Source of the DNA: Chrysomallon squamiferum
Taxonomy: Eukaryota; Animalia; Mollusca
NCBI GenBank assembly: GCA_012295275.1
Contig: CM022678.1
Coordinates: 1,116,001 to 1,180,000 of the forward strand
DNA length: 64,000 nt
Direction of reading: 5' to 3'
In this document: positions 23,166-64,000 of the stretch, one piece after another
How the letters are laid out: each line of letters opens with the position of its first letter
Numbering within the stretch: the first letter of the stretch is position 1
Position numbers and translations under genes: made by a program
The notes under the pieces: generated by a model
Seen by the model: the letters and a program-made list of their open reading frames with translations, nothing else
Databases searched by the model: none
What the model was told of the DNA's origin: nothing

Positions 23166-26100
23166 CTTCCTCCCCTCAAAATTTTCAATTTACCCACAAA
23201 TTATCTTATATCTAAAATTCTAAAATACATTTGTGTGCTTTACTAATTAGTAATAATTAAACAACTGAACTTTGAACTTAAAACAAATAAACTTTTTTTA
23301 TTTTTTTCATTGGACACCATAATAGTTCAATTACAGTTTACCAGGTATGTCCATTGGTCACATATGGAACTTCAAATAACAATATTATTTTTTTTTTAAA
23401 TATAATAAAAAAAAACACTAATAATTCTACAATCTTTCAATGAATTCTGTATTACACAGATTCAGATTAAATCACTTTAAATAGTTTCTATCAGTCATTG
23501 AGTTGTTTTTCGAGCACGTCTAGGATATCTTGGGGTTGACGGTATTGGTAGTTGCGGTACATCGTCAACAGTATCGTCGATGGCATTAGAAGCATCCTCT
23601 ACGGCATTAGAAGTAACTGTTCTGTTTTTCATCTCAGTCTCTTCCACCTGAACGGTTGGTTCAACAAATTCCATTTCAGACTCAGTACCAACTGCAGACA
23701 GTTCTGGGGAAGGGTTCCTATTATCCTCAGAATACGCACATTTACAAAGTTGATCCACATGTCTTTTACACACAAAATCTCCGACTTTCACTCTGTGGGT
23801 AACAGGCCCTAGCTGACACAGTACTTTTCCACTCAACCACTTGTCAGATCCTGTGTTGTTCTTCACTTGTACTGAATCTCCAACATTGAACACCCGTGTT
23901 TTACTTGCTTTTGGAATAGTTCTCTTTTTAACAGAGTTCTCCAAACTTGGACGCAAAATATCCAATCTCGTTCAAACACGTCTGCCAAGAAACAATTCTG
24001 ATGGGGTACATTTTGTAGTACAGTGCGGAGTGTTCTGATATGCAAACAAGAATGATGAAATCTTCTGGTTCATGGTTCGTGACTCAACTGTTTTCATTGC
24101 AGTTTTGAAAGTACAAACAGCTCTTTCTGCCTCACCATTTGAACTTGGATGGTATGGAGCTGATTTGATGTGTTTTACTTCATTTTTCTTAAGAAATGTT
24201 TCAAATTCCTCTGCAACAAACTGAGGTCCATTATCAGAAATCAACTGCTCTGGCATTCCATAACTTGCAAAGAGATTTCTCAATGTCTCTACTGCATGCT
24301 TTGCTCTGGTACTGGAAAAACTTCCATCCATTTAGAATGTGCATCCACCACAATAATGAACATTTCTTTCATGAATGGTCCAGCAAAATCAACATGTATT
24401 CTTTGCCATGGTTTGTTGGGTCAAATCCAATCTAGCCAAAGATTTCATATGCACAATTCCTATTTGATTTTCATGAAGATAATACAGAATATCTGTTCAA
24501 TATTTATCGGGAATAATCGCTCGCATTCCTCTGAGAAGACAGTGTTTCTCCACTGTTAATTTATCTTTCACTCTGAAATAAGGTAACAGCTCGGGTGAAA
24601 TAGAAGATTCTTCTGGCCATCCAGACATGTTATAATGTACAACCCGAGATAATACTTTGTCAACTTCAGTTGCTTTCACAATGTTTCTTGCAGTGATAGG
24701 TAATCCATTGACTTGATTTCTCATTGCTTGCTTGACTTCATGCCAAAACACACTTTCAGATATTTCTTCAGTTTGCAGAAGTGGTAGTCAGGACAACGCA
24801 TCAGCATTTCTATTTTTGTAGTTTTTCTGTATTTAATGTCAAACTGATATGCGGCTAACTGAATAGCCCAACGCTGTAGTCGAGAGGCTGTCAGAACAGG
24901 AATATTCTTTTTAGGTCCAAGAATCATTGTCAGTGGTTTATGATCTGTGAACAAAGTAAATCTTCTACCATACAGGTACTGATGGAACTTGTGTATTCCA
25001 AAAATTATTGCCAATGCTTCTTTCTCAATCTGGGAATACTTGCGTTCTGCTGATGTCAGAGTTCTAGAAGTGTATGCTTGCTATTGGCCTATCTGATCCT
25101 TCATTTCCATGTGATATTACCACTCCAAGACCATGCGCAGATGCATCTACTGCCAACATTACTGGTTTCATCGAGACATAGTGGACAAGAATTTTAGATG
25201 ATGCTAACAGTTTTCCCACTTTGGAAAATGCTTGGTGACAATCATCACTCCATTTCCACTCTGAGTCTTTGGTTAACAACGCTGTTAGCAGTGCCACCAC
25301 TGTTGACGTGTTGGGTACAAACTTGCGATAGTAATTCACAATACCTAACCAAGATTGCAACTCACTCTTGTTTTAGGTTCAGGCACTTTCAGAATAGCTT
25401 CAACTTTTCTTTCAGAGGTTGAATCCCATTTTTGTTCACAATAAATGCAAAGTACTCAACTTCATCTTTCATCAGTGCACATTTGGACCTTTTCGGTTGA
25501 ATTCCATATTTTTCTAGGCGTTTCAAAGTGTTTTTCAATGTTTCAAGTGTTCGGTGTCATCCTTTCCAGTGACTATGATGTCATCCAAAATGTAACCTAC
25601 ACCTTTTAGCCCTTGAAGCATTTTGTCCATAGTTTGTTGAAAAATAGCAGGCGCTGCAGCAACTCCAAATGGCAACCTTGTATAGCGATAAAGTCCAAGG
25701 TGAGTACTGATTGTGACATAGTTCCTCGACTCTTCATCAAGCAACACTTGCTGGTATCCATGTGACAAATCCAGTTTGGCACTTCCAACACAGGATTTAC
25801 GGTAACCTTGTAATCGCCACAAATGTGAATGGTATTGTCAGGTTTTAAAACAGGTACAATAGGAGAAGCCCACTCTGAAAAATCCACCTTTTCTACAATT
25901 CCTTCTGCTTCAAGTCTGTGAAGTTCATCAGCAATCTTTTCCTTCAAAGCATAAGGTACTGGTCTAGCCTTGAAAAACTTTGGAGTAGCATCCTCTTTCA
26001 CTTTCAGATGAGCTCTTATGCCTTTTACTGTTCCCAACTCATTTGAGAAAACTGAATATCTACTGAACAAATCTTCAGAGTTTCCATAGGCTTTCATAAT

Positions 26101-27450
26101 CTTAATACTGTTCCAATCCAACTGAATGTTTTGGAACCAATTCCGTCCAAACAAAGTTGGTCCATTTCCTTTCACCACAATTAAAGGTAAAAGTTTTTTC
26201 TGCTTTCCATATTTAACAGTCACTCAATTTGCTCCAGGACTGGCACCACTTCATCTGTATAAGTTTTCAACACAATCGATGTTGATTTCAATGGCACTGT
26301 TTTCTTCAATCTTTCCTGATAATTCTTATTAGAAATTATCGATACAGAAACACCTGTATCTACTTCCACTTTGAATGGCACACCATTGAGTTCCAATGAA
26401 ATTTGAATTTCTTTCGCTTTCATAGATTTCACTGTGAAAATTGACTGTTCAAAATCACTGTCATTTCTTTCCATTGCAATCTCTTTATTTTCTAGAACAG
26501 CTTTTATAATTTCTGATTCAGTTGTGTTACTTCCAGATTCTTCATGAATTTTTAAACCTGTCTCAAATTCAGCATTTTCAATTTCCAAATCACTGGTACC
26601 ACTTTCTGATTCCGTAAGGTCCCTATCAGAATCTTGATTCACAACATTCAGTTTAGAATTTTTCTTTTTCAACTATTGAAATTTCTTTTTTCCTTTTTCC
26701 ATCTGTTTGCTTTCCTGTCTTTCTATTTTTTTCTTTTGATTTCAACATTTTCTACTCAAATGTCCTGTTTCATTACACTTGTAACAGTTTGCCTTTTTGT
26801 AAAAACAAGCATCAGGATGATGATTAGTTTCACTGGAAGCATTCAATGACAGAAACTTTGTGGAACTTTTCTGTTTCTGACTTAATTCCTATTTTCAGCT
26901 TGTCAGTTTTTCTAGCTGCCATTTCTATACTAACAGCTGTTTGCAAGGCTTTCCTCAGTGATAAGTCATGTTCAGAGAGAAGTTTTTTCTGTACTGACTT
27001 TTCAGACAGACCACAGACCAAAATGTCTCTTAATGCTTCAGTCAAAAATGCACCAAATTCACAATGTTCTGTCAATTTTCTTAATTCAGCCAAAAATTCA
27101 CTTACAGTCTCTCTTGTTTCCATTGATAGAATTTGAACCGTTCCGCAATCATCAAAGGTTTTGGTTTAAGATGATTTCCTATCAAGGTTTTCAATTGTTC
27201 GTCAGTTTTACTTGCCGGTTTCTCAGGCGAAGTCAGATTTCAAATCAACCTGTAAGTCGTGGCACCACATACGGACAACAAAATGGAATGTTTCTTTTCA
27301 GCATCATCTACATCATTCGCCAGCAGATACTGTTCCCAACGTTCGATGTATTCATCCCAATCAGAATTTTCTAGATCAAACTCTTCAACTTTACTGTAGG
27401 TAGCCACATTTCATAAACAGTTAATTTCAGGAAACAGTTTAACAAGTGTT

Positions 27451-27468
27451 ATCCCATCCTCGTCGCCA
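27451..27468 (-). promoter_or_regulatory. Primer-binding site for tRNA-Ser(GCU)
   Basis: Minus strand TGGCGACGAGGATGGGAT, 2 nt inside the 5' LTR; plus strand ATCCCATCCTCGTCGCCA equals the 3' end plus CCA of metazoan tRNA-Ser(GCU) as I recall it. Confidence 0.85.
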
Positions 27469-27470
27469 GG

Positions 27471-27656
27471 TGTTATGTTTTATCATTAAAACATAAAGTT
27501 CATTTCAGTTTCCAAACAATTTATTTGTTTCAAAAATGTCTGCGAACAAAAACTAACGCATGCTCCCGGTGACTTCATATAACACTCTCTTATTCCGGTT
27601 CCCCTAAACATTGTAAACTGTAACAATGTTAACCCTAACAACATTTAGATACAACA
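27471..27656 (-). repeat. 5' LTR
   Basis: 186-bp repeat of 22980-23165, followed on the minus strand by the PBS and gag. Confidence 0.95.
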
Positions 27657-29802: not shown

Positions 29803-32041
29803 AAAGGAATCTTTATAAATATGTAATTTAATTTGTAACTACATAGATATAACAACTATATGTTTATATTTTTATTATCCTAATTCATACGTTTAATTTT
29901 TTATTCCTGTCTTTGTATACTAAAACCTAATACACAACTGTTTCTGTTTTATAACTGTAGTCATGTCTGTTTTGTGTTTATAGCCATGCTGACCTTGGCA
30001 AATAAATAAACTGAACAGGAAACTGAATTGTAGAAATAGTAGTAGTAGTAGCAATAGCTGCAGTACAGTATCGTCTCGTTGTTACTTTTTGACTGCGCAC
30101 ACCGTCAACCAGGTAAAACGTCAATTAATGAATCCCGGGACATTGGCAGATCCTCACTGGTACATTTCAGCTTGTCCCACTAAGTAGACACAATTTTAAG
30201 ATCATTTACACAAGTTTTTGATTTCGCGGGCCATAATGACTTCGACGACTATCCATTAAATAAGGAAATGTATGTGAACAGTCTTTCCGTTAATTGAAAA
30301 GTCTTTTTGTTAATTGAAAAGATTGCATATGAGACGAGACCAAACGAAATGGAAATTGTTTCAGTCATGTTAACGGCTTAGTGAGAATTAAAAACATTGT
30401 CTTTATGTAATTTGTCCAGAGTTAACTAACAACTTGTTTACTACAGAGCTGGACCAAACAACGCTTTGACATCAAAGGTTATTGAGTGGAAGAAGAAGAA
30501 GGAGAATAGATAGATAGATAGATAGATATGGATATTTAATGTTCAAAAAATCATCTTTTAATTACATAAAGAAATTATTTGTAAAAAAATAACATCATGT
30601 AAAGGTTTTAATGGTTGAATACTTTAATATTTACAGATCTTTATAAAGCTGCCAACAACGTCGGAGACGAAATTGGGACTCATACCTGGCCAAGACAGAA
30701 TTGTTAAAGTGTTGTTTTAGAGGTGGGCAATGACAGTGAGTGAATAAATTTTGTGGACATCACTTCTGTATCATTCCTTTTGTCTGCCATATTTGTGCTT
30801 CTGACGTTCTCCTTCTTGTCATTTTTACTGTGAATGACTCAGCTGTTGAATACAGTGGAGGTAAATATTCATATCTGATGCATGAACATTCTATAGTTTG
30901 GAAAAAACAAACATGGGTGCATATTGGTAAGTTTTCATTGATAGTTTTTGTATAACAATTTAGTATAGATATTGAGAAAACTGAGTATTATAACTTACTG
31001 AAACTATTCTGTATATTTTTCTTATTTATATAATACAATTTAGTGGTAGTGTTGAGAAAACTAAAAATATGCTTACTGAAACTATTTTGATGTTATCTAT
31101 AATTTGCATTGTTAATATTACAATTTAGTGTTAGTATTGACAAAACTAAGAATATATCTTTCTGAAACTATTCTATACATTTTCATTGTTTATTTAACTT
31201 AATTTAGTATTAGTGTTAATAAATATGTAAATATAAATTGTTGAAACAATTTCTCATTGTTTGTTCTACTTAATTTAGTAAAATTATTCTTATGATATGT
31301 ACATTTACATTGTTTATATAGAATAGGTTGATATTAGGGTTGACTAAGAATATAATTTATTAAGACTGTTTTGATAATTACTAGGTTTATGTAATTTAAT
31401 AGTGCAGTTCAGAAAACATACTGTATATGCTTTGTGATAATGATTACATTTTTGCAGGTCAACCATTAGAGATTTAACGAGAGTTGTTTTAGAATTTATT
31501 TTAACAAGAGAGATGATTCTTCGTCAGGGAGTATGACAAATTTGTTTATATCTTTATCAATACCCTATACATCAATATAATGTTAACTATTTTTACTATT
31601 TCTAAACTAACACTTTTTTATTTACATTGATAATAAATATACAATTTAAAGAGGTTTAAGTACTGTCTGACAGCTAAAAGCAGCAAAAATAAAAAATAAA
31701 TAAATAACTAAATAAAAACACACACTAATTATTGTTTCCTCATGACAGTTATTATTATTCTTATATTGGCTTTTTTTTGTTTTAATGTTGTAAAATAATG
31801 TTGAGGTCATCAGTCAGTGTATCTATGTGTAATTAGTTAACAGTATTAAACACATTTGTTAAAACATACATTGCTCTATTCAGTAATACTGTTCAGATAG
31901 ACTACGAATTTGTTCTGTGTTTGAAACACTGCTATTACATCCAATAATTATATCTTATTCTCAGTATTTTGTAGGTAAAAACATTTTTAGAAATTATGCA
32001 TTTGTGAATGATAAAAAAGTATTTGCTCTGTTTCACTTCAG

Positions 32042-32104
32042 GACAACTGACAGCAAACGTATCTCATTCTGGTTCTACTGAAATAAGCGGTAACACTATA
32101 AACC
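32042..32104 (+). CDS. 63-nt micro-exon, GQLTANVSHSGSTEISGNTIN
   Basis: tctgtttcacttcag acceptor, c|gtaagt donor, phase 1-1. Confidence 0.6.
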
Positions 32105-32386
32105 GTAAGTTAAAAACTGAAAGTTTTCTCTTCTCTACATGTTTAACAGATAACACAGTACTTAGTAGACATTAGTACTTTTGTCAGACATTGTGAACAA
32201 CATAGAAACGTGCACATCAAGACATAGACACAATATATAAAAAAGAAAATTAGTATTTCAACCACTGCTATACATCCGACAGTGATATCTAATTCTCAGA
32301 ATTTTTCAGCTAAAACGTTTTTAGAAATTATGCATTGAAGTTGTGAGTTATAAATAGGTATTTACTTTGTTTCGCTGTAGGACTGT

Positions 32387-33176
32387 ATATTAATAAATGT
32401 ACCTCTTGGTTTTATGATCTATGGTGAACTAGGACGGTATCCCCTTGGTATTTCTATAAAAGTAAGAATGACAACCTTTTGGAGGAACCTAATTTGCAAA
32501 ACAAAAAAAAAAAAAAATATTTCCTCACAACTATATTATTTAATGCATGTTATCGATTCTCCTTGGAACAGATTTGTAAAATATATTTTAGATGATTGTG
32601 GTTTAACATATATTTGGATATATCTCAACTTTGATAATGTTAAATGGATACGAGAAACGATATCCAAAATATTACATGATCAATTTCAACAGTTTTGGAA
32701 AAATTCTAAATGAAACATCTCCAAAGGGTATTAATTATAAACATTTAAAAGATGAATTGAAATTATAAACTGTCTTACTTTGCTGTCTCAAAAGAATGCC
32801 AATGTCTTATGTAAATTTAGAACCTCGAAGGCTAAACTTCCTATTGAAACTGGACAATGGTCTAATATTCTAAGAGAAAACAGAAAATGTCATATCTGTA
32901 ATCTTAACAAATCTGGAGATGAATATCACTATATATTTGAATGTAATGTATGTATTATTAAATGCGAGAAAGGGTATACCAGACAAATACATGAGACATC
33001 CAAATATAATTTCATATAGCTATATTTGTTAATAAGAACTATATGTGAGAGATTATGTCCTCCACGTTAAACTTCCACGCTTCTGCATTTTAATTTTGTT
33101 TCTATATATCTGTAATACATTCTTCTCTGTACTGCAACCCTACAATTTATGAGAATAAAATCATTGTAATTGTCAT
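32387..33176 (+). mobile_element. 5'-truncated LINE 3' end inserted inside a micro-exon
   Basis: IYGELGRYPL...RMTTFW and KFRTS..KLPIETGQW...CHIC...DEYHYIFEC are typical LINE ORF2 C-terminal segments; AATAAA at 33154 and a short cattgt-like tail; removal rejoins a 63-nt exon. Confidence 0.85.
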
Positions 33177-33233
33177 TGCCAGCAAACACAATTCATTCTG
33201 GTTCTACTGAAATAGGAAATAGGCATGAATCCG
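33177..33233 (+). pseudogene. 3' part of LINE-interrupted micro-exon (PANTIHSGSTEIGNRHES); 5' part at 32381-32386
   Basis: 6 nt + 57 nt = 63 nt; acceptor ctgtag at 32380; donor g|gtatgt at 33234. Confidence 0.65.
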
Positions 33234-33682
33234 GTATGTTATAAACTGAAAGTTTTCTTTTCTCTACATGTTTAATAGATAACAGACTACTTAGTAGTCA
33301 TTAGTATGTTCTCTCAGACACTGTGACGTGAACAATGTAGAAACGCGCAAATAAATACACGGACCAATACATATAAACATACATATCTGTAACTAGTCTT
33401 AGCACATACACAGAATACATACACACAACACATACACACATATATGCACACACATACATATGCATACATGCATTACACAGACACACAAATTTAGACACAG
33501 TGTATGTATATTAAACTGTATGCTGCCATGTTTCTACATATACACTAAAAATGTGTTTCAAACACTGGAACTACATTTAATAATTATATCTAATTGTCAG
33601 AATTTTGTATGTAAAAATATTTTTAGAAATTATGCATCGAAATTGTGAATTATAAAAATGTATTTAATCTGTTTCACTGCAG

Positions 33683-33745
33683 GACAACAGCCAGCAAACA
33701 TATCTCATTCCAGATCTACACAAATAGGAAATATGTATTTACCCG
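33683..33745 (+). CDS. 63-nt micro-exon, GQQPANISHSRSTQIGNMYLP
   Basis: tctgtttcactgcag acceptor, g|gtaagt donor, phase 1-1. Confidence 0.65.
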
Positions 33746-34075
33746 GTAAGTTAAAAACTGAAAATGATCTCTACTCTATGTGTTTGATAGATAACAGAAT
33801 ACATAGTAGTCATTAGTACATTTCTGTCTCACACTGTGACTTGAACAACATAGAAGCATGAATATAAATACATAGACACAATACACATAAATATACATAC
33901 CTGTACCTAGATGTAGCACATACACAGAACACATACATACATACATGCATGCAGAGGTTCATTACACATTCAGTAATTATTTCTAATTCTCAGTATTTTG
34001 TAGGTAAAAAGATTTTCAGAAATTATGCATTGAAATTGTGAATTATAAAAATGTATTTGCTCTGTTTCACTACAG

Positions 34076-34138
34076 GACAAGAGTCAGGAAACATATCTCA
34101 TTCCGGATCTGCTCAAATAGGAAATAACTATGTATCCG
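34076..34138 (+). CDS. 63-nt micro-exon, GQESGNISHSGSAQIGNNYVS
   Basis: tctgtttcactacag acceptor, g|gtaagt donor, phase 1-1. Confidence 0.65.
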
Positions 34139-43745: not shown

Positions 43746-46020
43746 AAAATTTAGTTTTTTTAATTTGAAATTTTAATATGGAGTTTTTTCTCATTAAAAT
43801 TATTTTTGACATACCAGGTTATATAAGATTCACAATAGCCATGTTCTAAATTTCTCAACATTATTAAACGAAAATTAATTATTTATTAAATTACATCCCT
43901 AAGATAAATTAAATCAAAAGATAAATACTAAAATACAATTTTGTAAATATTTGTGAGTGAAATGTTTATTATTAATGTTGTCGCTGTCGTTAATTTTTGA
44001 AGTGGACAAGTTTGAACTTGTTAATCACGATTTCCGGTGATTGAACAGAACCACGTGATTTAAAATGGAGAAATTATTGCATCCGAAAAAGAAAGGTAAA
44101 GAAATTTGTAATGCACTTTATGTATTTTATATATATATATATATATTTTATATATTTTAATCCCGATAAACATTGAAATTACTTTGATTCTTTATAATAA
44201 TTTAATTTTTACTGAATGAAACTACTATTAAGTACTATTGATGATCATAAATTATTGTGAACACTGCAGAATAATTTTTAAAAGCATGAAACTTTTTTAA
44301 CCTCTTAAACAATGTTGTTGTTATTATTATTATTATTATTACTGTATAATATCACTTTTTTCAGTAAGTCCAATCCCCTAAACAGTTAATCGTTGAATAC
44401 TTACACTGTAATATATATATTTTTTTATACAGATATAAGAGGAAATGTGTCTGTAGATTAATATGAAATCATGAAGTGATCAAGATTTGGAATCAAGCAT
44501 GTAGCAGATGACTGAAAGCTGAAAGGTACGAATTCGCAATGTGTGTTTATACAAGCAGACACAGTGAAGGAAAAATGATCATGTACAAGATGTGACAGCA
44601 TCATCCTGATTTGAGGTATTGTTCACTATTTTATAATTATGTTTTATGTCCAGAAATGAAAAGTTTACCAGCTTCATATGTTGTATTAAATAAGTAACTA
44701 AAAACAGTTACATATGAGCAGTTAGAGTTAAAAGTGTGGTCCACTGAAGAACACGATGTTAAGTTCTGTAGGAGTTTAAACTGAACACAAAAAAGTGACA
44801 CCTGCTTTAAATTCATTGTAATACTTGTCTGGAAAATGCTGAGTGATTAATAACACAAGTGATACAGCGACATTACAGGAAACTGAGTTGTGAAAGAACC
44901 CACAGGCAACAACGAAATGTAAAAGTTGTGTCAAACTATTGTTATCAAAGTATTTTTATCACCAGTCCCATCTAACATTGAAAATATAATCTCAAAGGTA
45001 TTCAACTGCAGAGTTCATAAAATAGTTTAAGAAACCTGATTCAGAGAGAAAATGTTACTTTGAGTCTCTAGATTACATCTGTAGTTAAAGGGTTCAGTGA
45101 CAAGTAAACATTCAACTGCCTCCAGCATCTGACTCGTCTCTCCAGTTAAATGTTGGATTTGTAAAATAATCAGTTGCTGTCATTTCCAGTCCTAAGTTGA
45201 TTCCACTTCCTTTGTTTATATAAAATGTTTTGATGATACCCAAATGTGCTCCAATAAATAAAAAAATAGACTCCTGACTGGCCAGAGCAGAATTGTTAAA
45301 GCCTTGTTTTACAGGTGGACTGTTAGTTGATGAAATTACTAATGACAGTGAGTGTAGTCAAGCTGATACCAAATACATTTGCTGGACATCACTTCTGTAT
45401 CATTCCTTTTGTCTGCCATCTTTGTGCGTCTGACGTTCTCCTTCTTGTCATTTTTACTGTGAATGGCTCAGCTGTTGAATACAGTGGAGGTAAATATTCA
45501 TATCTCATGCACGAACATTCTGCAGTTTGGAAAAATTATGCACACAAATTCGTAAGGCTTCACTTATAGTTTCCGTAAAACTTAATTTAGTACTGATATT
45601 GAGAAAACTGAGCATATAACTTAGTAAAATTATTCTGATATTATCTATACAATTTTATTGTTTATATTACAATTTAGTGTGAATATTGAGAAAACTAAGA
45701 ATATGTTTTACTGAAACTATTCTGATATTATCTTCTCATTTTCATTGTTTATTCAACTTAATTTAGTATTATTAATGAAAAATGTTTCAATATAAGTTAC
45801 TGAAACTATTTTTATATTGTTTATTTACTTAAATGAGTAAAAGTATTATTATGATATGGGAATTTACATTGTTTATAGAGCATAGTTTGATATTAGGATT
45901 AATAAAACTAAGAACATAACCAAGTAAAACTATTTTTATAATTATTAGATTTACATAATTTAATAGTGCAGTTCAGAAAACATACTATAAAGGCTTTGTG
46001 ATAATGATTATATTTTGCAA

Positions 46021-46083
46021 GTCGACCATCAAGACTTATACGAGAGGAGATTTTTCCTAACAGAGGTGTTTTTCTGTCAGAGA
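46021..46083 (+). pseudogene. 63-nt exon-like unit (GRPSRLIREEIFPNRGVFLSE) with acceptor AG>AA
   Basis: ttttgcaa| here versus tttttgcag| in the paralog at ~31458; donor a|gtatga; phase 1-1. Confidence 0.4.
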
Positions 46084-46666
46084 GTATGACAAAATTGTTT
46101 ATATCTTTATCAGTGCAGTATACCTCAGTTTAGTGTTTACTTTTTGATAAGAAATTCTAAATGGACAAAATTATTATTTGTGTGTAAAAATGTAGCTTTT
46201 CAATTTATTGTTTACTTTTTATTATCATTTGTAAATTGACTGATACTGATAATAAATTAACAATTCAAACGGCTTTATATACAGTCTGACTGACGAAAAC
46301 ATCAAAAAGGAAAATAAAAAGATAAACGATGAGAAAAATATAAACATTTACACACTAATTACTCCCGACTATTATAATTATTGTGTTGACATTATTTACT
46401 GTAATACTGAGGTCATATGTCACATCTAGGCATAATTAGTTAACAATATTGAGCACACTGTATACAGCAATACTATTTAGACAAATTGTATTCCACTGTA
46501 TTCTGCCAAATCTCTACATACAGATAAAAACATTTTTTTTTTTTGTGTGTTTCAGACACTACTACTATGTTTAATAATTATGTCTAATTCTCAGGATTTT
46601 GCAGGTAAACACATTTTTGGAAATTATGTATTGAAATTATGATTTATAAAAAAAAATTCATTGAAG

Positions 46667-46729
46667 GACAACAGCTTGCAGACATATCTCATTCTGGTTC
46701 TACTCAATTAGGAAATAACTATGTATCTG
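46667..46729 (+). pseudogene. 63-nt micro-exon, GQQLADISHSGSTQLGNNYVS, donor GT>AT
   Basis: Homologous to 34076-34138; followed by ataagt instead of gtaagt; pyrimidine tract deleted. Confidence 0.6.
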
Positions 46730-47100
46730 ATAAGTTTAATAGATAACAGAATACACAGTAGTCATTAGTAGTACTTTTCTGTTAGACATTGTGACCCGAA
46801 CAACATAGAAACATGCACAATATACAATGTATATTTATCTGTACCTACATTTAGCACATACACAAAACACGCACATATACACACATATACATGCAGACAC
46901 ACAAACACAAATATGTTCAGACAGTCACAGTGTATGTGTGTTAAACTGAATGTTGTTATATCTCTACACATAGATTATAAATCTGCTACTATATTTAATA
47001 ATTATATATAATTCTCAGAATTTTGTAGGTAAAAACATTTTTAGAAATTATGCATTGAAACTGTGAATTATAAAAATGTATTTACTCTGTTTCACAGCAG

Positions 47101-47163
47101 GACATCAGACAACACACATATCTCATTCTGGTTCTACTGAAATAAGCCATAACACTATAAACA
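47101..47163 (+). CDS. 63-nt micro-exon, GHQTTHISHSGSTEISHNTIN
   Basis: tctgtttcacagcag acceptor, a|gtaagt donor, phase 1-1. Confidence 0.65.
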
Positions 47164-47568
47164 GTAAGTTAAAAACTGAAGTTTTCTCTTCGCTACATTT
47201 TAACAGATAACACAATACAGAGTAGTCATTAGTACTTTTGTCAGACATTGTAACGTGAACAACACAGAAACATGCACATAAATTCATAGACAAAATGCAT
47301 ACATACCTGTACTTACATTTAGCACACACACAAAATATCTACATGCAGACATGGAACAAACAGACACACACACAAATATATTCAGAAGCAGACACACACA
47401 CAAATATATTCAGACACAGTGTATGTATGTTCAACTGCATGTTGTCATATCTCTATATCTATTTAATAATTATATCTAATTCTAAGAATTTTGCAGGTAA
47501 AATCATTTTTAGAAATTATCCATTGAAGGTGTGAATTATGAAAATGTATTTTCTCTGTTTCACTGCAG

Positions 47569-47622
47569 TACAGCAGCAAGGAAATTCTAGTACTGTTCAA
47601 ATAGGAAATAACTATGGATGCG
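47569..47622 (+). CDS. 54-nt micro-exon, (I)QQQGNSSTVQIGNNYGC, containing a VQIG RHIM-type core
   Basis: tctgtttcactgcag acceptor, g|gtaagt donor, phase 1-1; 9 nt shorter than its siblings with frame preserved. Confidence 0.65.
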
Positions 47623-47874
47623 GTAAGTTAAAACTGAAAGTTTTCTCTTCTCTACATGTTTAATACATAACAGAATACACATCACAGTAGTCATTTTCAG
47701 AGACACAGTGTATGTATGTTAAAGTGTATACTGTCATATCTCTACGTTAACACAAAAACATTTTTTATTTTTTTGTATTTCAAACACTGCTATATCTAAT
47801 TCTCAACATTTTGCAGGTAAAATATTTTTAGAAATTGTGAATTATAAAAAAGTATTTTCTCTGTTTCACTGAAC

Positions 47875-47937
47875 GACAAGAGTCAGCAAACGTATCTCAT
47901 TCTGGTTCTACTCTAATAAGCGGTAACACTATAAACC
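47875..47937 (+). pseudogene. 63-nt micro-exon, GQESANVSHSGSTLISGNTIN, acceptor AG>AC
   Basis: cactgaac| replaces cactgcag|; donor c|gtaagt intact; an in-frame AG at 47879-47880 could rescue a 57-nt exon. Confidence 0.55.
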
Positions 47938-48260
47938 GTAAGTTAAAAACTAAAAGTTCAATAGATAACAAAATAGATAATAGATGTTTAATAGGCAACA
48001 AATACATAGTAGTCATTAGTACTTTTCTATCAGACACTGTGATCTGAACAATATAGAAACATGCCCATAAATATATAGACACAATATATATATATATATA
48101 TAAACGTACACACTGTACTTACACTTAGCACATACACAGAACGTGTACATACAAACACACACATGTAGATACAGACATGGATTGCAAAGACAGAGACACA
48201 GACAGAGACACAGTGTATGTACGTTAATCTGTATGCTGCCATATCTCTGTTTCTCTGCAG

Positions 48261-48307
48261 GACTAATGCCAGGTAACATATCTCATTCTGGTTCTAATGA
48301 AATAAGA
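48261..48307 (+). pseudogene. 3'-truncated micro-exon, GLMPGNISHSGSNEI
   Basis: Good acceptor tctctgcag; homology stops at ~48307 and joins sequence paralogous to 34381 onward; family donor lost. Confidence 0.5.
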
Positions 48308-49429
48308 GTTATTGATGTCACCAGGTCGTAGCAAGAAACACATTTTAAAAAATTCCTTAAAAATCATAAGCCTGCAGCAGTGTACTCGACCAACCAACAA
48401 CTTGTTGAAACATTCAAGAATTTTATATTATAGAATTAAAAAAAAAGTGTTCTTATGCTGATTACAGCAGGTCAGAAATATGAAAACAGATGCTAAAAGG
48501 CATGGTCAAAGACGGATTCAAAACAACCTGCAGAAGAAATACTTGGTAGAAGTATCAGTGTTACTAACAGATTGATGCACATTATTTCACATGTTTCTCA
48601 GTTACACCTTTTTATTACAATCTCATTACGTCCATGTACGTTGAGATGGTAATGTTTGTCTTTATGTATACATACAGACAGACAGACAGACAGATATATA
48701 TTTGTTAACTTGATGGAGGTTTTGTCCTGGTTTGGCACTTGTGATCCTACTGGAAGTGAAGTTCACAAGTACAACCTAATTAACAGACAAGCTGACATCA
48801 CCGAGCTCACTCAGTAACTGTTTAGAAGTCATTTTACTGCAGTGCTGACCTAGCAATTACATAATTAACTTTTACCATGAAAAAACTAGTTATTTTTCAT
48901 TTAATCTAACAGACACTAAAAGTCTTGACATCCATTAATGTTGCCCAGAATACAAAACCCACTTGTCATATGTAATCTATCTCCACCAGTAATTAATACA
49001 TTATCCAAAGATGCTCTGATCTGCTATTCTCTGCTGTTAGGATTTTTTTTTTCAAATTTGTTTCTAGTCAGTGCTTAAAAAATCGTCATTTTCCTTATCT
49101 TATGTGAATATGCATGTTTTAGCATTTTGAATTACAATCTACATACTGATGTAGTAATGTTTTATTTTTGTTAATTTAATTTATTATTTTTTTATTATTT
49201 TGTTTTTAATTTATATTTTTTCTCCAAGGTCATTTATTCATACTCAGGTCATACTATCGTTTAGCAGTGGCTAGTGACTTAAGCAAAAACATGCGCATTT
49301 AAACAAAAACACACATACACACACACACACACTATTAATACTGTATGCCCTAAATTCTCAAACAAACATTTTTAGAAATAATGCTTATAGGCTGTGAATT
49401 TAAATAATATTTTTATACGTTTGCTGCAA

Positions 49430-49522
49430 TACAACAATTGGTAAAACATATAATGTAAATATGTGCAGAGGTAAAAATCAGTAACAGAAATATTGTATCA
49501 GGAGATGACGCTGTGGAAAACA
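49430..49522 (+). other. Degenerate homolog of the 8208 exon; possible 54-nt in-frame exon 49469-49522 (VKISNRNIVSGDDAVEN)
   Basis: Family donor a|gtaagttaaaaactgaaa; ggtaaaaca..aatgtaaatat shared with 8227-8247; original acceptor reads caa; internal gcag at 49468 gives phase 1-1. Confidence 0.4.
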
Positions 49523-52515
49523 GTAAGTTAAAAACTGAAACATATTTAATACATAACAGATCTACATGTCACATTAATCATCAGTATTTTACCATCAAAC
49601 ACTATGACCAACACATGTCAACACAGACATAATTCATACATACATATGTACATGTCTACCGACTACAAAGGGTGCATAAATTGCGAGAACAATCGTTTAA
49701 TTCACGTGAAGGTGCTCAAAACCGTCCTTGCGTAACTCATTTTCCGTTCGTCCAAACTGTGTGCTATGCTGAAAGATAGTTTGCTCATGGTTGAAATTAA
49801 ACTGCCATTCACCACATCAACACCATTGGCCTCTGAGTGACATTCTTTGGTGTTCAGTCTTTCTGCATTGCTACTTGAACAATGTCGTTGCTGCAGAGGT
49901 TACCGTAATAAAACCAAAACCTTGTTAACTAAGAAACTATAATTTTGAAATCAACATTAATATTTATAATACAAGTAATGCAATTTTTTTTTCTTTGAGT
50001 GAATGGAGTAGAAGAAATGAAAAGTTATTTTAATTGTTTTTACCTGTTTGGAAATAGCAGCCACTTCTGTTGGTGCAAGGCTGGAAATCGAGGCATTTGT
50101 CTCATTTCTTCGGTATTTAATTGAACAATGTCAAAAATGACTAATTATTCCCTTCAAATTATCAAAGCAACATTAATTATCTATAACACTCTCCTGCTTT
50201 TAGCTATAACTTTAAATAAATTACACTTTATTATATAAACAAAATAATATAACGATAATAATTTATTCCAGTCATAATCCTTAGTTTATATTTATTACTT
50301 CTAATTTATAAAATAAAATACATATTCTTTAAAAAAAGAGATTTATGGAAAAGAAAATGATTATGCAAATAATGTTTGGATAATCCATTAACGGGTTAAA
50401 TAAAATTTAGACACACACATACACAGGCACTTAAAAACATACAGACAACTAAACAGACAGACATTAACAGGCATAGCATAAGTTCTGACTGAAATTTTCT
50501 TCTTAAACTCTTAATATAACTCAACATGAATTAAACATGACTATATGCCTGTCATTATTATCACCTGTAAATATTAAATATACTGCAAATTATATGTCAC
50601 AATAAATCGTGAATATATGGGGGATATTAAAGATGTTTTAACTAGCACATCCCAAGATGTATTGTAGCAGTATCAGATTTTTCACTTTTTCCAGAACACA
50701 GGAAGTAGAACGTAACAGCTACGGGTGGGTTCAGACAATTTATTCGATGTCACACAAAAATGAAGACAAGGAAAAACACCCTACGAGAACAATAAAACAA
50801 TAAATATCACATCATAGAGTACATATAACATCAAGTTATAGAATAATTTATGTATATATATATAACATTTATATCACAATTTAAGCAAATGTATATCTAT
50901 AATACTATTCATCTCATCATAAAATAATGTAAATTGAATTATCTTGCTTTAAATCCTGAGTATTTAATGCCAAACTATAAAAGCATTTGATAACATAAAG
51001 CAAATACATGTAATAAATACACTTGATTAACACGACAAATACAACTAGTCATATACCACAGTTATACATGACAAACTGATATTTGACAAACATAATACAT
51101 AAAAACTCATACCAGGTAGATGACACCTGGGTGTAAGAAACTGGATTCTCCAGCACACTGAACGAGAACAGGACAATCTACAAATCAAATACAAGACATA
51201 TAAAAGAAACTACCGACAATTACACAATTAACACATCACATATCGCCAACCACGATGCACCAAAACATGTCCACACACACATAAAAAATACACATACAAA
51301 ATACATATACACAATTGACATTTCATTCAGATTGTATGTTTTCTTTAAGCCAGCTATCTTGAACAAATGTTTATTCAATGTAATTTAATCCATATCTCCA
51401 ATATAAATAATAATTACTTTATATATTCATAAAGTAATTAAACAAGTACTTTCTAATGGTGTTAAATAACAATGCATGTATACAAAACATACATATATTA
51501 AATAAAACAAAATACAGACTAACCTTTCAGATAATATCCACTTTCAAATAATAAATTCAGTTCCACCTTTAAAAATGAAATCTGGCCTGACAGTATGATC
51601 TTAGCAGGAGAAATAAACCTGAACACTTGAGCCAAGTTGTTTATTCCCTGATGGGCTTGGGAGAGGAGTTTGGGAACAATAGTTAACACGCAAGGCAAGT
51701 AACGTGTGTTAGTACAGTGTAAGCTGAATGAAACAATCACCACAATGACAAGTTACCAGCCTATTGTTTGGCATAACCTGGCTAGGGATAAAATAAAACT
51801 TTAGTTACACAATAAGCTGACAGGAGGCAAGCTGTAAATAAAACCTTACATTAATGACAAAGCCTGCTAAGAAGCAAATATCTGCAGATAAAACATTAAA
51901 TACAAATCCTAACTAAAACAAATACCACATACTTCCACAGTATTTGAATATGCTAGAGTATCAAAATAACGTACTGCTTAGTGGGATGTTGACGTAACAA
52001 TCAGTTAATCATAACATCGGTTTTGACCTCAAATTCCCACTATTCTCACCCATTGTTTTAGAGATAATAACCCACAGTTAACTTCGACCAGTCTGATCTC
52101 AGATTGGCAGCTATTTTCCAAAATAATGGTCATACTGTTTCAATTCATAAACATATACATTTTATTATTTAGGAAAGACCACATAGGATGTCTTATAATA
52201 TTCCTTCTCTAGAGTGGTGCCGAGACTTGTTTCAACTTCAGCAGACATGCAGACGCTAGTGGGTTCCCCAAAACAACATTTCACAAAGCTTATATAATTT
52301 TTAAGGAAATATGACATCCATTACGTATTAAAGAGGAGACTGGCGTCTTCATCACACTTAACTTATGTAATTCTTAAGCTTTACATAATAAAGAGGAGAG
52401 TCTGGTTGTCTCTATCACACCAACAATAACTCTAAAAAAGAACATTAGTGATAAGAAACACTGGCAGTAGTTTTGAAAGTAGTAGGAGTAAATATATAAT
52501 GTAAATAACAAAGAT

Positions 52516-53101
52516 GGTGTCAGGGCATTTCCCCATGGATACCCCCCCCGTGAGAGTTTCCCCCATCTACCTGTTTTAGCTGTCAAATATCCTTATAGTC
52601 TGAGTCATTAATAAGATTTTTGAAGCGGCCAAACATCGCTTAAATTTGGAAATAATGAAACTGCATAAATTATTCTTGTTTTTTTTTTTTTTTTTTTTTT
52701 ATCAACAAACTTAACTGTTTAAACTTCATGTCAACAAACTCCAATCATTATATTAATATCTGGCTGTTTCTGGATGATCCGGAACCCCTCCAAAAGACAA
52801 AAACACCTCAATACTTTAACACTGCACCAGATACTGTTGTGTCTACACAGACATCACCCAGTAGATTCAGGCTGTCATCACAGACTACGGCAACAGAGAC
52901 TGCCAGGATGTGCTCCGTGTTGCTGCACACAATCTCCACATGTAAAATGTTTCAAGTAAACAATTTGTGTCATATAAAATTATCTTTTTATCTCCAGATA
53001 ATCTGTACAAGAGATCAGTTAGGCTTGGCATGGTAGGCAGGGTGAATTGTCAAAGGGGAAATGATCTAGGGTGAAATGTCAAGGGGGAAATGCCCTAGAA
53101 T
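52516..53101. mobile_element. 586-bp MITE-like insertion (Mutator-type TSD length)
   Basis: Subterminal inverted repeat agggcatttcccc (52522-52534) / ggggaaatgccct (53084-53096); flanking direct repeat taacaaagat at 52506-52515 and 53102-53111. Confidence 0.8.
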
Positions 53102-53279
53102 TAACAAAGATATAATAATAATAAAGTAAATGTTTACTGTTTCATGAATAAAGTGCAGAGTAATTGTTATAGATCACTTTAATCATTCTGTTTTATGAAC
53201 AGTCAAAACTATTTACATGGTAAACTATGTTTTAAACAGTCACTAACAGATACTATTTTTTGTTTATGTTGTCATACAG

Positions 53280-56200
53280 AGTCTACCAGGTCAAAATTAA
53301 ACTCAACTGACAGGAATGTCTATGTTAAAACAAGAGCAGAAGAAAGAGGTGCTGCACTTTTGAAGAAGAACGGTGTTGTCATTGTGATAGGATATCCAGG
53401 TTCAGGAAAGACAACTCTTGCTTTGAGCATGATGAGACAGATGGAAAAAGAAGAAAAAAGAGTATCTTACTTGCTGACTCATCACTCTGAATTCAGTGAC
53501 ATCTCTCTATCTAGAAATAAGAAATATGTTGTTCTAATTGATGATATATTTGGTAAGACTAATCTTGTTTCAGAATTTATATATTCATGGAAACTCAAAT
53601 TTCCAATGATCTGGAATCTTGTTCAGAATGGTTCTTTGAAATGTATTATTACTTTAAGAAAACCATTATTTTCAGAAAATGAAACAAGTTTGAAGGAGTT
53701 TGGTCTCTTTAATGAGAAACATGTTCTTGATCTGCAGAGTCGTGACTATTGTCTGGATAATAACGAAAAGGAAGAAATTCTAAACAAATATCTTGAACAA
53801 AAGGATGTTCCATTGAATGAAATTGATAAAATGATTGTCATTCACAGTTCATGTACAGAGTTAGGATTTCCTCAGGTGTGTGTGTATTATGTTAATTCAA
53901 GTCATGCACAAAAAACAGGAGTTAATGTTTTTGAGGATCCTTTAAAATATCTCAAAGAAGAGCTGGAAAATTTGAAAAATGACAAAACTTACCTGGTTCT
54001 ACTGCTGATCTTGTTCCAACAAGGCAGTATGAGCGTTGATTCACTGGACCCTTTTGAAAATGGCTCTGACAGTGTCATAATGAAATTAGTAAGAAAACTA
54101 GAGCAATTCTGTCAAAGTCTAGAAAACACTGATCTTACAGAGATCAGGGAAACAGCTGATGAAATGTGTGGTACCTATTTAATGTGTTATGACAATAAAT
54201 ACACATTTATTCACCAGTCAGTATTTGACTGTTTTTTTCTGATATTTTCATCAGATTTTCCAAGGAAAGCAGCAGAGTTTCTAGAAGTGTGTCCTGTCTC
54301 CACGTTGTTAGAATATGTTGTTACGCCTGGAGTGTCTAACAAAAGTCACGTTTCAATGACTGTGACACCTGACTGCTTTGATGTTCTTGCTCGCAGATTT
54401 ACTGACTTGCTGGCATCAGACAATTTCACAGAAATTATTTCACATCCATCACTGAAAGATGAAGAGTTTCTAAAATACCTCATAGAAGAAAAACAGTTTT
54501 ATGGTAGGTTGTCTGAAATCTTACAGCAAAGACTATCTGGAGAACATCAAAAGCAATATAGTTATATATCATTTGTACATGTAAAGTCAACTGAAATTAT
54601 TAATTATATTTCATATCTTACTGACAATGATTCTAGAAACGCATTTCCTTTCAATCTTGAAGAAAATGTTATTAATTCAAAATCTGTCCCAAGTGAATGT
54701 ATCGTGAATAGACAAAAAACATTGTCAAAATATTTCACATCAAAATTGTGTCGGATGGAATTGTTAAAACTGCTTAAAACAATAATATCACGATTTTTTG
54801 CATCAAAACTGTTTGAAACGGACTTAAAAGATATAAAAAAAGAAATATTGGATATTTCTTGTTTGTTTGGTGATGAAGATGTTGTGGGAATGTTGCTAAA
54901 ATCAGGTGTTACACCAACATTTCATACACTGACTGCAGCTGCTTGTTCAAAAACAGACAGTACTACCATACTCAAAGAATTGTTACAGTATAAAAAAGAG
55001 ATGAAATTGAAGAACTATTCACAGCTGTTACGTCTTTTGGTTTATTCAGGTAACATGAAAATTTCCTGTCTGTTGGCTGACATAATAAATAATGAGAAAC
55101 ACAAGAGTGAAATCAAGGAAAAATCTGTTAATCTGTTATTGGTTAGATTCCACAGACAAGTAAGACTTAAATCAAGTTACGAGGCAGATGGCATATATAT
55201 GGAGAACTCAAAGACTTCTAAAATTGTTGATGTATGCCGTCTGTTTAAGAAACTGGTTACCATTGATATAATAAACAAAAATAAAGACATTGCTATCATT
55301 GCTGCTGGTCAGAGTACTTCAAGTGTTATAAAAGAAATAGTAAAACTGAAACCTGATTGTATAAATGATAAGAACAGAGATAAAGTACTTTTAGCAGCAG
55401 CAATGTGGGGATCTACTGATACAGTGAATTTTCTCATTGAGCAGAGACGTAATGATACAGGTGAGAACAACTGGAAGAAAAGTGAAGTACTGAAAGCGGC
55501 AGTGATGTTTAACAGCGTAGATGTTGTTCAGTGTCTTCTTGATAAAGGAGCTGATCCTAATGTTAAAGTAGATATTAACCAGAAATTAATTCAATTGTTT
55601 GAAGATGAAATCAGATTAAAACTACATAAACAGAGTTTGAAATTGTTGCCTTCAGATTCACTTCTCCATATTTCAGTTCTGCGTGGTGATTTAAATATGA
55701 TAAGATCACTGATAAAGAGAAAAGCTGATGTTAATGCAGTAAACAGTGAGGGAAGAACTCCACTTCATGAAGCTGTAAAAGCAGTGACACACAGAAAGGA
55801 AATAGTTTTGTTGTTACTGCAAAATGGTGCTGATATTAACATAACAGATAAACAAAAAAATACAGCATTGCACATAGCATCTCAAATTGACATAAATGTG
55901 ATAAAAAACATAGTAAAGAAAGGCGTTGAAATAAATGTAACAAACACTGCAGGTGAAACTCCACTTTTTATATCCTTAAACACCAACAGACGACAAATAG
56001 CTTTATACTTACTAAAAAAAGGAGCTGATCCTAATATGACAGACAATGATAACAATTCTGTTTTACATTTAGCAGTTAAATATGGAAATGTAGAAATTGT
56101 GACCGCACTGACTGAAAAAGGTGCTGATGTAAATATTAAAAACAGAAGAGGTGAAACTCCTCTTTTTAAAGCTGCATTCTCTCGTAAACGCGAAGTAATT

Positions 56201-56989
56201 TTGTATTTACTTGACCATAAAGCTGATCCTAATATAACAGACAATGATAACAATTCTGTTTTACACCTAGCAGCTGAACGTGGAAATATAGAGATTGTGA
56301 CAGCACTGACTGAAAAAGGTGCTGATGTAAATATTAAAAACAGCCAAGGTGAAACGCCTCTCTTTGCAGCTCTTCATTTCTGTCTGCGTGATCCACCTCT
56401 GAATATTGAAAAATATAAAGTATTTTTCTATTTACTGCGAAATGGAGCTGATCCTAATTTAACAGACAATGATAACAATTCTGTTTTACACTTAGCAGCT
56501 GAATTTGGATATATAGGAATTGTGAAAGCACTGACTGAAAAAGGTTTTGATGTAAATATTAAAAACAATAGAGGTGAAACTCCTCTTTTTACATCTCTTA
56601 TTTACAATGAACTTGAACCATCTCTGAAGAATGAAAACTGTAAAGTAGCTTTGTATTTATTGGAATATGGAGCTGATCCTAATATAACAGACAATGATAA
56701 CAATTCTGTTTTACACCTAGCAGCTAAACAAGGATCTTTTGAAATTGTGACAGCACTGATTGAAAAAGGTGTTGATATAAATATTAAAAACACTCGAGGT
56801 GAAACTCCTCTTTTTACAGCTGTTAAGTGTGCAGATTGCATACTAGTTTTGTATTTACTACAGCGTGAACCTTCGAAGAAAGTAGATTTCTATATACAAC
56901 GATATCAAGCTTTGAAGAAAGTAGTTTCGTACTTACTGGAATATGGAGCTAATCTTAATTTAAGAGAGAATGATAACAATAGCAGCTGA
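53280..56989 (+). CDS. Large terminal exon of an NLR-like protein: STAND P-loop NTPase (nSTAND3-like), helical region, ankyrin repeats
   Basis: 3.7-kb open frame; YVKTRA...LLKKNGVVIVIGYPGSGKTT Walker A (53390-53413), VVLIDDIFG Walker B (53528-53554), IITLR sensor-1, GFP, FIHQSVFD winged-helix end; divergent ankyrins from ~55380 and conserved di-repeats at 55952, 56150, 56348, 56573, 56798. Phase-1 acceptor tttgtttatgttgtcatacag| at 53279. Confidence 0.9.
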
Positions 56990-61939: not shown

Positions 61940-64000
61940 AATTTAACCTTTCTTCCTATTATCCAAAAAATATTTCTATTTTAGTTTTATGACCTGGTCA
62001 GGCTCCTGGATCAGCCTATTTTGAACAAAATCAGACTGAAGTTATATCTGCAGCATACAGAAATAAACCATATAAAAGTTATATGTGTATTATATAAGAC
62101 AAAACTCTACTAAAGTTATATATGTAAATATACACAACAAAACTATACCAAAGTTATATATGTATTACACAGAACAAAACCATACTAAAGTTGCATGTGT
62201 ATTTTATACAACGAAACCACACTAAAGTTATATATGTAAACATTATACACATAGAAGAATATATAACAGTGTTACACCTGTACAAGTATTTGAATTTACC
62301 TGTATTATGGTCAGTGCTTGTAGGTAAATCTCTGGCCTGGCCTATGAATTTACCTGTATTATGGTGATGCTTGCAGGTAAATTTGTGATGTTACACCTGT
62401 ACAGGTATTGTTTTGTTCACACAGGTACGGGCCACGTGAAGTGTTGAGGAAGGAAGACTTCAGCATGAAGGGACAGCTGACCTGCGAGTTCAAGTTTGCA
62501 ACGTTTTCCTGCAGACAACGTCGACAACACCAGCAAGACAGCGAGGAGAAAGACTACTCACTTCAAATCCTGGAAGCTCTTGAACCAGCTGTCTGTCTGG
62601 TGAGTATGTATGTGTGTCTCTCTGTCTGTCTGGTGAGTTTGTATGTGTGTCTCTCTGTCTGTCTGGTGAGTTTGTATGTGTGTCTGTCTGTCTGGTGAGT
62701 TTGTGAGTCTCTGGTGAGTGTGTATGTCTCTGTCTGGTGAGTGTGTGTGTGTGTCTGGTGAGTCTGTATGTCTGTCTGTCTGGTGAGTGTATGTATGTCT
62801 GTCTGTCTGGTGAGTTTTTATGTCTCTGTCTAGTGAGTTTGTGAGTGTCTATTTATTATAATTTATAAACCAATATAAAATTTAACCTTAATCATAAAAA
62901 CACTAATAGTACAATAATCTAAAAATTAATAATGGCAGAATTTGACAGTAAACAAAATAAATTCACCATTTTGTTGAACACTTTATTAATTTTCTTTTTT
63001 GGCTGAGAAAAACTGGTGCATTTTTCATTATTTTTCTTTAAAAAAAAATAAAAATAAAAAATTAGAAAAAAATAGAGGAAAACCAGCCTAAATGATTTTC
63101 CTATGCTTTAAAGTAGTTGTATTACAGGTTTCTTGTTAAAATATAGGTATGTTAGTATTATAGAAGTATTCAGAATATATTTTCTATAATTTAAGGTTAT
63201 TAGTATATTTTTCCATAAAATGTAGTTACGTTAATACTAACAATACACTGAAACAATAGTGTACATATCTCTCAATCTCTCATTTTATTTATTTAAAAAA
63301 AAAAATTATTTATTTATTTATTTGTTAAATTCATTTCATTCTCTGATATGAAGATTTTAACACCCGTTCTTTTATGTATTAGTTCTAACTAATAAATAAA
63401 TAAATCAATTTTCTAAAAATTGATTCTTTATTTACAGATTGTCCAATGAGATGACTGGTGGGCGTGGTAACAGTAACAAGTAAAACAAAAACCTGTCAAT
63501 CAAAATCTTTGACATGGGAGGTAAAAGGAAAAGCTCTTCTGTTGACCCAGATCAGTCCACTGCAGAGCTTGAAGTAGTGAGTAGTGAAGTAGTGTGTAAT
63601 TAAGCAGCATGAAGGCAGTATTCACTGAAGTAGTATGAAAACAAAATATAGTGAAGCAGTATGAAAGTAGAGTAGTGAAATGGAAGTAGTGTATAGTGAA
63701 GTAGTATGTAGTTGAGATGTATGAAGTTTAAATTGCTGTAGTATGCAAATAGTGCATAGTGAAAGTAGTATGCAAGTAGTGTATAGTGAAGTAGTATGCA
63801 AGTAGTGTATAGTAGTATGAAATTCTCTCTGTATGTCTGTCTCTCATTCATGTCTCCCTTTGTATTATTAAAATAAAATTAATTACTCAGTATTAAACAA
63901 CAAGAATTCACTGTTTCTTAATTAATATACAAGCTGGAATAAATAAATAAATACTATTAATTATTTCAGCAGCTCAACAGCTTCCTATTATCTCAGAAGA
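59270..64000 (+). repeat. Segmental duplication, copy 2 (runs off the window), with relic exons 62425-62599, 63438-63576 and ~63970 onward
   Basis: Colinear with 10900-15735 at an offset of ~48.3-48.9 kb. Confidence 0.92.

Follow-up and report, generated by a model that had tools for sequence, protein, structure and literature searches.

Positions 53280 to 56989 of a 64,000-nucleotide (nt) stretch of the genome of the mollusc Chrysomallon squamiferum (assembly GCA_012295275.1, contig CM022678.1, positions 1,116,001 to 1,180,000 of the forward strand; hereafter, the window) form a real exon of a receptor resembling the NOD-like receptors (NLRs), in which an NTPase is followed by a C-terminal, variable ankyrin sensor. 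Upstream lie tandemly duplicated phase-1 micro-exons, one of which (47569-47622) bears a weak but specific resemblance, seen in profile comparisons and confined to this exon, to the RHIM and HET-s amyloid motifs. The two may belong to one gene: we put at about 0.35 the probability that this is an nSTAND3-ankyrin, NLR-like receptor whose N-terminus includes the 47569-47622 exon and which, by analogy with fungal systems, would seed an amyloid on a partner after ligand binding. An amyloid-signaling NLR variant at this locus is plausible but unproven. The genomic context is that of the window alone, which has a G+C content of 30% and contains no N.

The receptor comprises two features:

53280-56989, plus strand: large terminal coding exon with a phase-1 acceptor, encoding an nSTAND3 NTPase, a helical and winged-helix part, and an ankyrin array.
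55800-56989, plus strand: ankyrin array built of 66-amino-acid (aa) double repeats; some columns are hypervariable, and loops carry inserts of 0 to 13 aa or more.

The frame is open without interruption from 53183 to 56989, and the AG at 53278-53279 gives a phase-1 entry into 1235 intact codons, in agreement with the acceptor that the preliminary description of this DNA had placed at 53279; an in-frame ATG at 53195 would permit an unspliced start. Numbered from the 53280 entry, Walker A (GYPGSGKT) lies at residue 37 and Walker B (VVLIDD) at residue 83, and Pfam matches nSTAND3 over residues 14 to 172 (E = 1.9e-25; 89.8 bits, versus a cut-off of 27.2) as well as ankyrin repeats. The best wide structural match of a model of the first 450 residues (10-sequence alignment; mean predicted local distance difference test score, 79.7) is MalT (Z 15.2, root-mean-square deviation [rmsd] 5.5, 333 aligned); NRC2 (Z 14.8, rmsd 3.7, 275 aligned) and an archaeal STAND-TPR protein (Z 14.3, rmsd 5.6, 313 aligned) also match, and Foldseek retrieves archaeal ATPases, the NB-ARC domain of NRC1, SAMD9, and Avs proteins. 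By profile and fold, the exon thus encodes a P-loop NTPase of the STAND class that includes helical and winged-helix domains. The earlier proposal of a STAND NTPase joined to a variable ankyrin sensor is supported by the nSTAND3 profile, the fold matches, and the variability of the ankyrin columns. The latter was surveyed in fully occupied columns of 12 units, taken from the 53280-56989 gene and from the end of a paralogue at 1-2070. At least five residue types occur in 14 of the 66 columns, and one loop accepts 0 to 13 extra residues. Nonsynonymous and synonymous differences per site (pN and pS) are 0.45 and 0.42 in the variable columns and 0.14 and 0.19 in the remainder, figures that, with the columns chosen by variability itself, describe selection and do not test it.

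Other receptor copies have left traces in the window. Positions 1-2340 are the 3' end of a paralogous receptor, with about 10 ankyrin 66-aa double repeats followed by a frameshifted, decayed repeat; the gene ending at 56989 likewise finishes in a decayed ankyrin repeat. At 19117-19933 lies a decayed partial paralogue of 55374-56167 (79% identity, frame broken).

By sequence comparison, the nearest relatives of the receptor are gastropod proteins. Among 7998 scored candidates, nine homologues were found (five from Gigantopelta aegis, three from Haliotis, and one from Mytilus; 24 to 46% identity), and the top Atlas cluster is nSTAND3, with Mollusca as its commonest phylum (score 0.99). The gastropod nSTAND3-ankyrin proteins of Gigantopelta aegis and Haliotis share the NTPase family and the ankyrin C-terminus (30 to 46% identity over the NTPase region) but differ at their N-termini, which are short, consist of low-complexity repeats, or carry PF00656 (caspase); the Mytilus homologue carries PF18738 (HEPN). 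The N-termini of the homologues vary widely, their modules being freely swapped, and two of the nine gene models begin almost at the NTPase. In the closest homologue (P0001), residues ~90 to 260 consist of many 10-residue N/Q/G-rich repeats, unrelated in sequence to the micro-exon units and possibly an analogous low-complexity N-terminus. A search for short homologues of the first 120 receptor residues gave no match among 11 candidates, and none of 186 pattern matches to the NTPase in metagenome contigs was confirmed.

The micro-exons are copies of a single tandemly duplicated unit, spaced 306 to 468 bp apart at 46.6 to 48.3 kb, with a duplicate of the cluster at 31.9 to 34.2 kb and distant relatives at 8208-8321 and 49431-49522:

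47569-47622, plus strand: intact 54-nt phase-1/1 micro-exon of 18 codons, QQQGNSSTVQIGNNYGC, the sole copy with HET-s/RHIM profile matches.
47101-47163, plus strand: intact 63-nt phase-1/1 micro-exon, HQTTHISHSGSTEISHNTIN, without the Q-I-G core; an alternative AG gives a start at 47098.
46667-46729, plus strand: unit copy with AT in place of the GT donor and an A-rich acceptor at the 17th percentile (the earlier LADISH example), likely dead.
47875-47937, plus strand: unit copy with AC in place of the acceptor AG; alternative AGs stand at the 37th and 45th percentiles.
48261-48324, plus strand: unit copy with a strong acceptor and a weak donor, whose GT falls one base too far downstream (64 nt, out of frame).
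49431-49522, plus strand: frameshifted relative of the 8208-8321 exon, of which 49469-49522 is the 3' part (acceptor at the 60th percentile).
32042-34138, plus strand: duplicate cluster, with intact copies at 32042-32104, 33683-33745, and 34076-34138; one copy is split by an insertion of ~800 bp at about 32400-33170 that looks like the remnant of a long interspersed nuclear element (LINE).
8208-8321, plus strand: distant 114-nt phase-1/1 exon, N/Q/V-rich and ending in FGNQVINT, whose donor and 3' flank are common with the units.

The percentiles are approximate: they derive from rough matrices of our own making, based on approximate frequencies, and rank each site against every AG or GT of the window. 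The sites of intact micro-exons rank at or above the 97th percentile and the broken acceptors from the 17th to the 60th. Six candidates lie between 46.6 and 49.5 kb. Just two of them, 47101-47163 and 47569-47622, keep a strong AG and GT in frame, so that the earlier claim that all of these exons can splice in frame to the NTPase holds for two. Candidates 46667 (GT donor lost, weak acceptor) and 49469 (the 3' end of a copy of the 8208-8321 exon that is frameshifted) were rejected as usable exons, and the supposed exon beginning at 46021 is preceded by AA, not AG. The peptides quoted in the preliminary description do exist, at 46667-46729, 47569-47622, 33683-33745, and 34076-34138. The length of 21 codons seen in most of the exons, which had been equated with the HET-s repeat, is a single inherited trait of the duplicated 63-nt unit; the copy that matches the profiles has 18 codons, and the 21-codon copies match no amyloid profile.

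Two further observations concern the surroundings of the units. A second conserved AG/GTAAA site stands 58 to 72 nt upstream of the unit acceptors (46605, 47029, 47497, 47817, 31975, and 34004; altered at 32310 and 33611) and is preceded in all eight units by an open phase-1 frame resembling IIISNSQNFV; the 46.6 kb unit alone has an ATG in frame. This open frame was rejected as a second exon per unit, its acceptor not being conserved and none of the eight peptides matching Pfam. Upstream of the 8208 exon, 7654-7758 and 6543-6660 form a duplicated exon-like pair with a polar, lysine-rich open frame, in a phase that differs from that of the micro-exons.

Several properties of the units bear on whether they are coding. 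In the nine copies tested, which include neither the remnant split by the LINE at 32381 nor the copy at 49431 with its frameshift, the phase-1 frame is always open, and stops interrupt the other two frames in nine and eight copies, respectively; the absence of stops is not by itself significant (P = 0.07 to 0.48 by simulation). No frameshift occurs across seven aligned micro-exons, whose sole indel is 9 nt long, and 10 of 12 indels in the flanks are not multiples of three (a count that omits 48261, 33183, and the distant copies). Frameshifts and stops combined yield P values of 0.002 to 0.017, or 0.017 to 0.084 when the copy split by the insertion counts as disrupted, and both ranges are rough, with the copies related and the flank alignment imperfect. 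Conservation is lacking at the amino-acid level: a pooled pN/pS of 1.49 was obtained (21 nonindependent pairs), and divergence reaches 0.25 in the micro-exons, versus 0.15 and 0.19 in their flanks (binomial p = 0.03). All this suggests real exons, subject to relaxed or diversifying selection, that are being duplicated and lost; we infer that they are translated now or were so recently and that duplication and decay keep the array in turnover. Outside the window, a 20-nt unit pattern hit four metagenome loci, none extending beyond 22 bases, as expected by chance; PDB sequence searches with the micro-exons returned two irrelevant matches (E = 0.3 to 0.8) in one case and none in another, and an Atlas search with a unit peptide reached at best 0.78, which is at most a lead.

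In a scan against the 24,736 Pfam models, the 24-residue translation around 47569-47622 matches three families and no others: HET-s_218-289 (E = 0.0088; 16.5 bits, versus a cut-off of 32.2), HET-S (E = 0.009; 16.4 bits, versus 24.3), and RHIM (PF12721; E = 0.014; 15.4 bits, versus a gathering cut-off of 20). The scan covered 144 such peptides in total, namely, this peptide, 16 other unit peptides, and 127 controls, which comprised 125 of the 140 open stretches most alike in composition (the 15 left out fall within ankyrin or P-loop coding sequence) plus two stretches with a Q-phi-G core. Amyloid families are matched by none of the 127 window controls, two of which match other families. The expected number of RHIM matches in the six frames of the window is ~0.003 (E divided by 24,736 models, times ~5,300 nonoverlapping 24-mers), an expectation that assumes E values calibrated for short N/Q-rich peptides and applies to an exon chosen after its motif had been seen. 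A phi-Q-phi-G core, VQIG, occurs only in 47569-47622, the other copies having T/A-Q-I/L-G or none. The G-phi-Q-phi-G signature is common to RHIM, PP, and BASS3 (Dyrka et al., bioRxiv 10.1101/2020.01.06.895854). By the 21-aa elementary repeat of HET-s and the HRAM motifs, the matching copy, with 18 codons and scores below the cut-offs, falls outside. Of the RHIM/HET-s resemblance first proposed for the exons at large, what stands is a weak, specific, and subthreshold likeness of one exon.

RNA evidence comes from three runs of one study, in the form of contigs, which share 5 to 8% of the words of 46500-56400. Aligned to 52720-55790 only, at 80% likeness, they show presence and not absence. Of 1030 contigs that fit this interval, 80 do so at 99% identity or more, so most derive from paralogues or related species. 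Contig depth is 0 to 21 in the five bins before 53235 and 39 to 181 in the bin with the acceptor; at least six contigs (two in X2 and four in X3) have loose ends ahead of 53278, and the consensus of these translates, in frame, to a linker that finishes in KTDG-R-T/A-S-T/N-IK. These contigs of relatives support the NTPase acceptor and its phase, and because their transcripts use it, the receptor exon takes upstream exons. Upstream on the receptor strand, the nearest intact exon-like units, 47101 and 47569, are each of phase 1/1. The intronic stretch 52878-52950 lies under RNA contigs whose ends are loose at either side and is likely a transcribed repeat.

For the 5' end of the gene, one candidate was identified:

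45330-45489, plus strand: candidate start exon with an ATG, 53 open hydrophobic/Cys-rich codons, and a phase-1 GT donor at 45490.

Its assignment to the receptor is speculative, and an 18-nt micro-exon reading of the region is possible. The 3' 126 bases are 96% identical (121 of 126) to a duplicate at 30.8 kb, compared with 553 of 711 (78%) over the rest (P = 1e-8 for the contrast); the duplicate lacks an ATG in that frame, the candidate peptide has no Pfam match, and the identity would be explained equally well by gene conversion or by conservation of a micro-exon flank. The 96% identical block (45380-45505 and 30750-30876) ends in a GT donor. No unusual RNA fold was detected in the conserved 45372-45505 block (z = 0.16 and -0.10), and an Rfam scan of the window returned no families.

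Taken together, a receptor with an amyloid-type N-terminus would work as follows. Its N-terminus is likely built from the tandemly duplicated phase-1 micro-exons, which would join the NTPase exon at 53280, with 47569-47622 supplying the RHIM/HET-s-like motif; by analogy with fungal NWD2/HET-S, the ankyrins would sense a ligand, the NTPase would then oligomerize, and the oligomerized motif would nucleate an amyloid on a partner. [quoted passage not shown] A wider version, in which a gastropod nSTAND3-ankyrin family picks its amyloid partner by exon choice within a micro-exon cassette undergoing duplication, diversification, and loss and sets its ligand by the ankyrin loops, as an animal NLR diversifying at both ends, is distinctly improbable.

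A series of results weighs against an amyloid-signaling receptor. With only 80 of 1030 contigs at 99% identity or more, expression of this copy is putative; the upstream exon of the relatives differs from every micro-exon (no place in the window matches it with fewer than 11 mismatches in 30), and no micro-exon-NTPase junction was seen among the loose ends listed in the contigs at 52720-55790. The claim that the micro-exons are spliced onto the NTPase therefore meets, in the only junction evidence at hand, a different exon. Four of the six candidates upstream of the receptor are broken, and no NTPase exon follows the module at 31 to 34 kb (there is none before 53280) or that at 5.5 to 8.5 kb. 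As for the motif, all three family matches fall under the curated cut-offs, 0 of 16 other unit-derived peptides match, and the sequence, T-V-Q-I-G, lacks the first Gly of the G-phi-Q-phi-G core. In all nine homologues, the sequence upstream of the NTPase is free of an [IVLT]Q[IVL]G core; in five of them, a single N-terminal stretch per protein was scanned, with no amyloid-family match; and the micro-exon alignment, compared with longer proteins in a large database, gave no match at E = 10 among 1227 candidates, which is weak evidence. Nor was an effector with the same motif found in the window, where a six-frame scan shows the motif only in the repeat units.

The same results lend themselves to other explanations. 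The micro-exon arrays might lie outside the receptor mRNA, either as relics of 5' ends broken in segmental duplication or as a separate short transcript (e.g., a Pirk-like multimotif decoy or adaptor), with the NTPase exon joined elsewhere or silent. The entry of the relatives' transcripts from a different exon agrees with this, as do three 5' modules for one NTPase exon in the window and the decay seen both in the candidate exons and in the paralogue at 19117-19933; Pirk itself holds several 18-residue RHIM-half repeats (Kajava et al., PMC4262963). Such a separation is only slightly less probable than the amyloid reading. Against it stand an NTPase-ankyrin frame intact over its whole length and nearest intact upstream exons that share its phase; moreover, the relatives' exon is unmatched in the window, so this copy would need yet another.

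Also close in probability is that the micro-exons are spliced in as a fast-evolving, low-complexity N/S/G/Q spacer in which VQIGN is incidental, the receptor signaling via some other N-terminal module. A pN/pS of 1.5 in exons more divergent than their flanks fits relaxed constraint as well as positive selection, most copies lack the core, and the N-terminus of P0001 is an unrelated low-complexity repeat; a spacer leaves unaccounted for, however, that the only Pfam matches of the peptide are to three amyloid-signaling families, with none among the controls and ~0.003 RHIM matches expected. It is highly improbable that the units are a noncoding tandem repeat in an intron, with splice-like sites and an open frame passed on by accident. 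The copies do share one origin, the absence of stops by itself is not significant (P = 0.07 to 0.48), and no purifying signal appears at the amino-acid level, but five copies have very strong acceptor/donor pairs 3n apart, and frameshifts, which are common in the flanks, are avoided in the exon.

Elsewhere in the window, the block at 59.1 to 64 kb has a duplicate at 10.8 to 15.7 kb, behind the other receptor paralogue, and segmental duplication therefore includes a neighboring gene of the RNase PH family (exosome-subunit-like), with exons at 62429-62602 and 61996-62067 and a duplicate near 13750-13920; the match (28.2 bits, versus a cut-off of 25.5) covers consecutive profile positions 14 to 33 and 34 to 91. 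On the minus strand, ~23400-27500 holds what appear by eye to be decayed retrotransposon-like pol fragments, two of which gave no informative Pfam match.

Amyloid-signaling NLRs have been shown experimentally in fungi, and bacterial motifs form fibrils (bioRxiv 10.1101/2020.01.06.895854; PMC13506858; PMC12881547; PMC4262963); in both groups, the motifs sit N-terminal of the STAND domain (PMC5485727; bioRxiv 10.1101/2020.01.06.895854). Further literature cited in the analysis is PMC7889193, PMC12261475, and PMC8195603. The likeness to fungal NWD2/HET-S and PNT1/HELLP and to bacterial BASS systems lies in a STAND NTPase that has a variable repeat sensor and would be preceded N-terminally by a short candidate motif of amyloid type. 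Unlike in those systems, the NTPase is nSTAND3 rather than NACHT or NB-ARC, no profile score reaches its cut-off, spliced tandem micro-exons would supply the motif, and an adjacent effector gene with the same motif was not found. Among animals, an N-terminal motif-NACHT-repeat architecture is stated for RHIM proteins, notably BF82280 of amphioxus (Kajava et al. 2014, PMC4262963), likewise an animal protein with a RHIM-like motif, a STAND NTPase, and repeats, and likewise only predicted; it belongs to another phylum and NTPase clade, and in comparison the motif here is weaker and its attachment putative. RIPK1, RIPK3, ZBP1, and the insect cRHIM proteins share a phi-Q-phi-G core with the 47569 exon, with GIQIGA and GVQVGD as cores, versus TVQIGN here, and with motifs in tandem in ZBP1 and Pirk (PMC4262963); these RHIM proteins are kinases, sensors, or adaptors and not NLRs, unlike the receptor described here. 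RIPK1 and RIPK3 are reported to originate in Mollusca (PMC13506858), so RHIM partners may exist there. We found no paper in the open literature that describes an nSTAND3-ankyrin receptor bearing such a motif in a mollusc, although supplements of motif surveys may list mollusc cases.

For animals, the literature on amyloid NLRs, as far as it was available, gives only the predicted amphioxus architecture (PMC4262963). The 18-residue exon offers a small and cheap test, by peptide and by splice junction, of an amyloid route in an animal NLR. Should the micro-exons prove unconnected to the NTPase exon, what is left is an ordinary gene of a large receptor family of molluscs, its 5' end in decay. If the link is true, the receptor would be a mollusc counterpart of fungal amyloid signaling, and amyloid motifs could hide in micro-exons that gene models miss.

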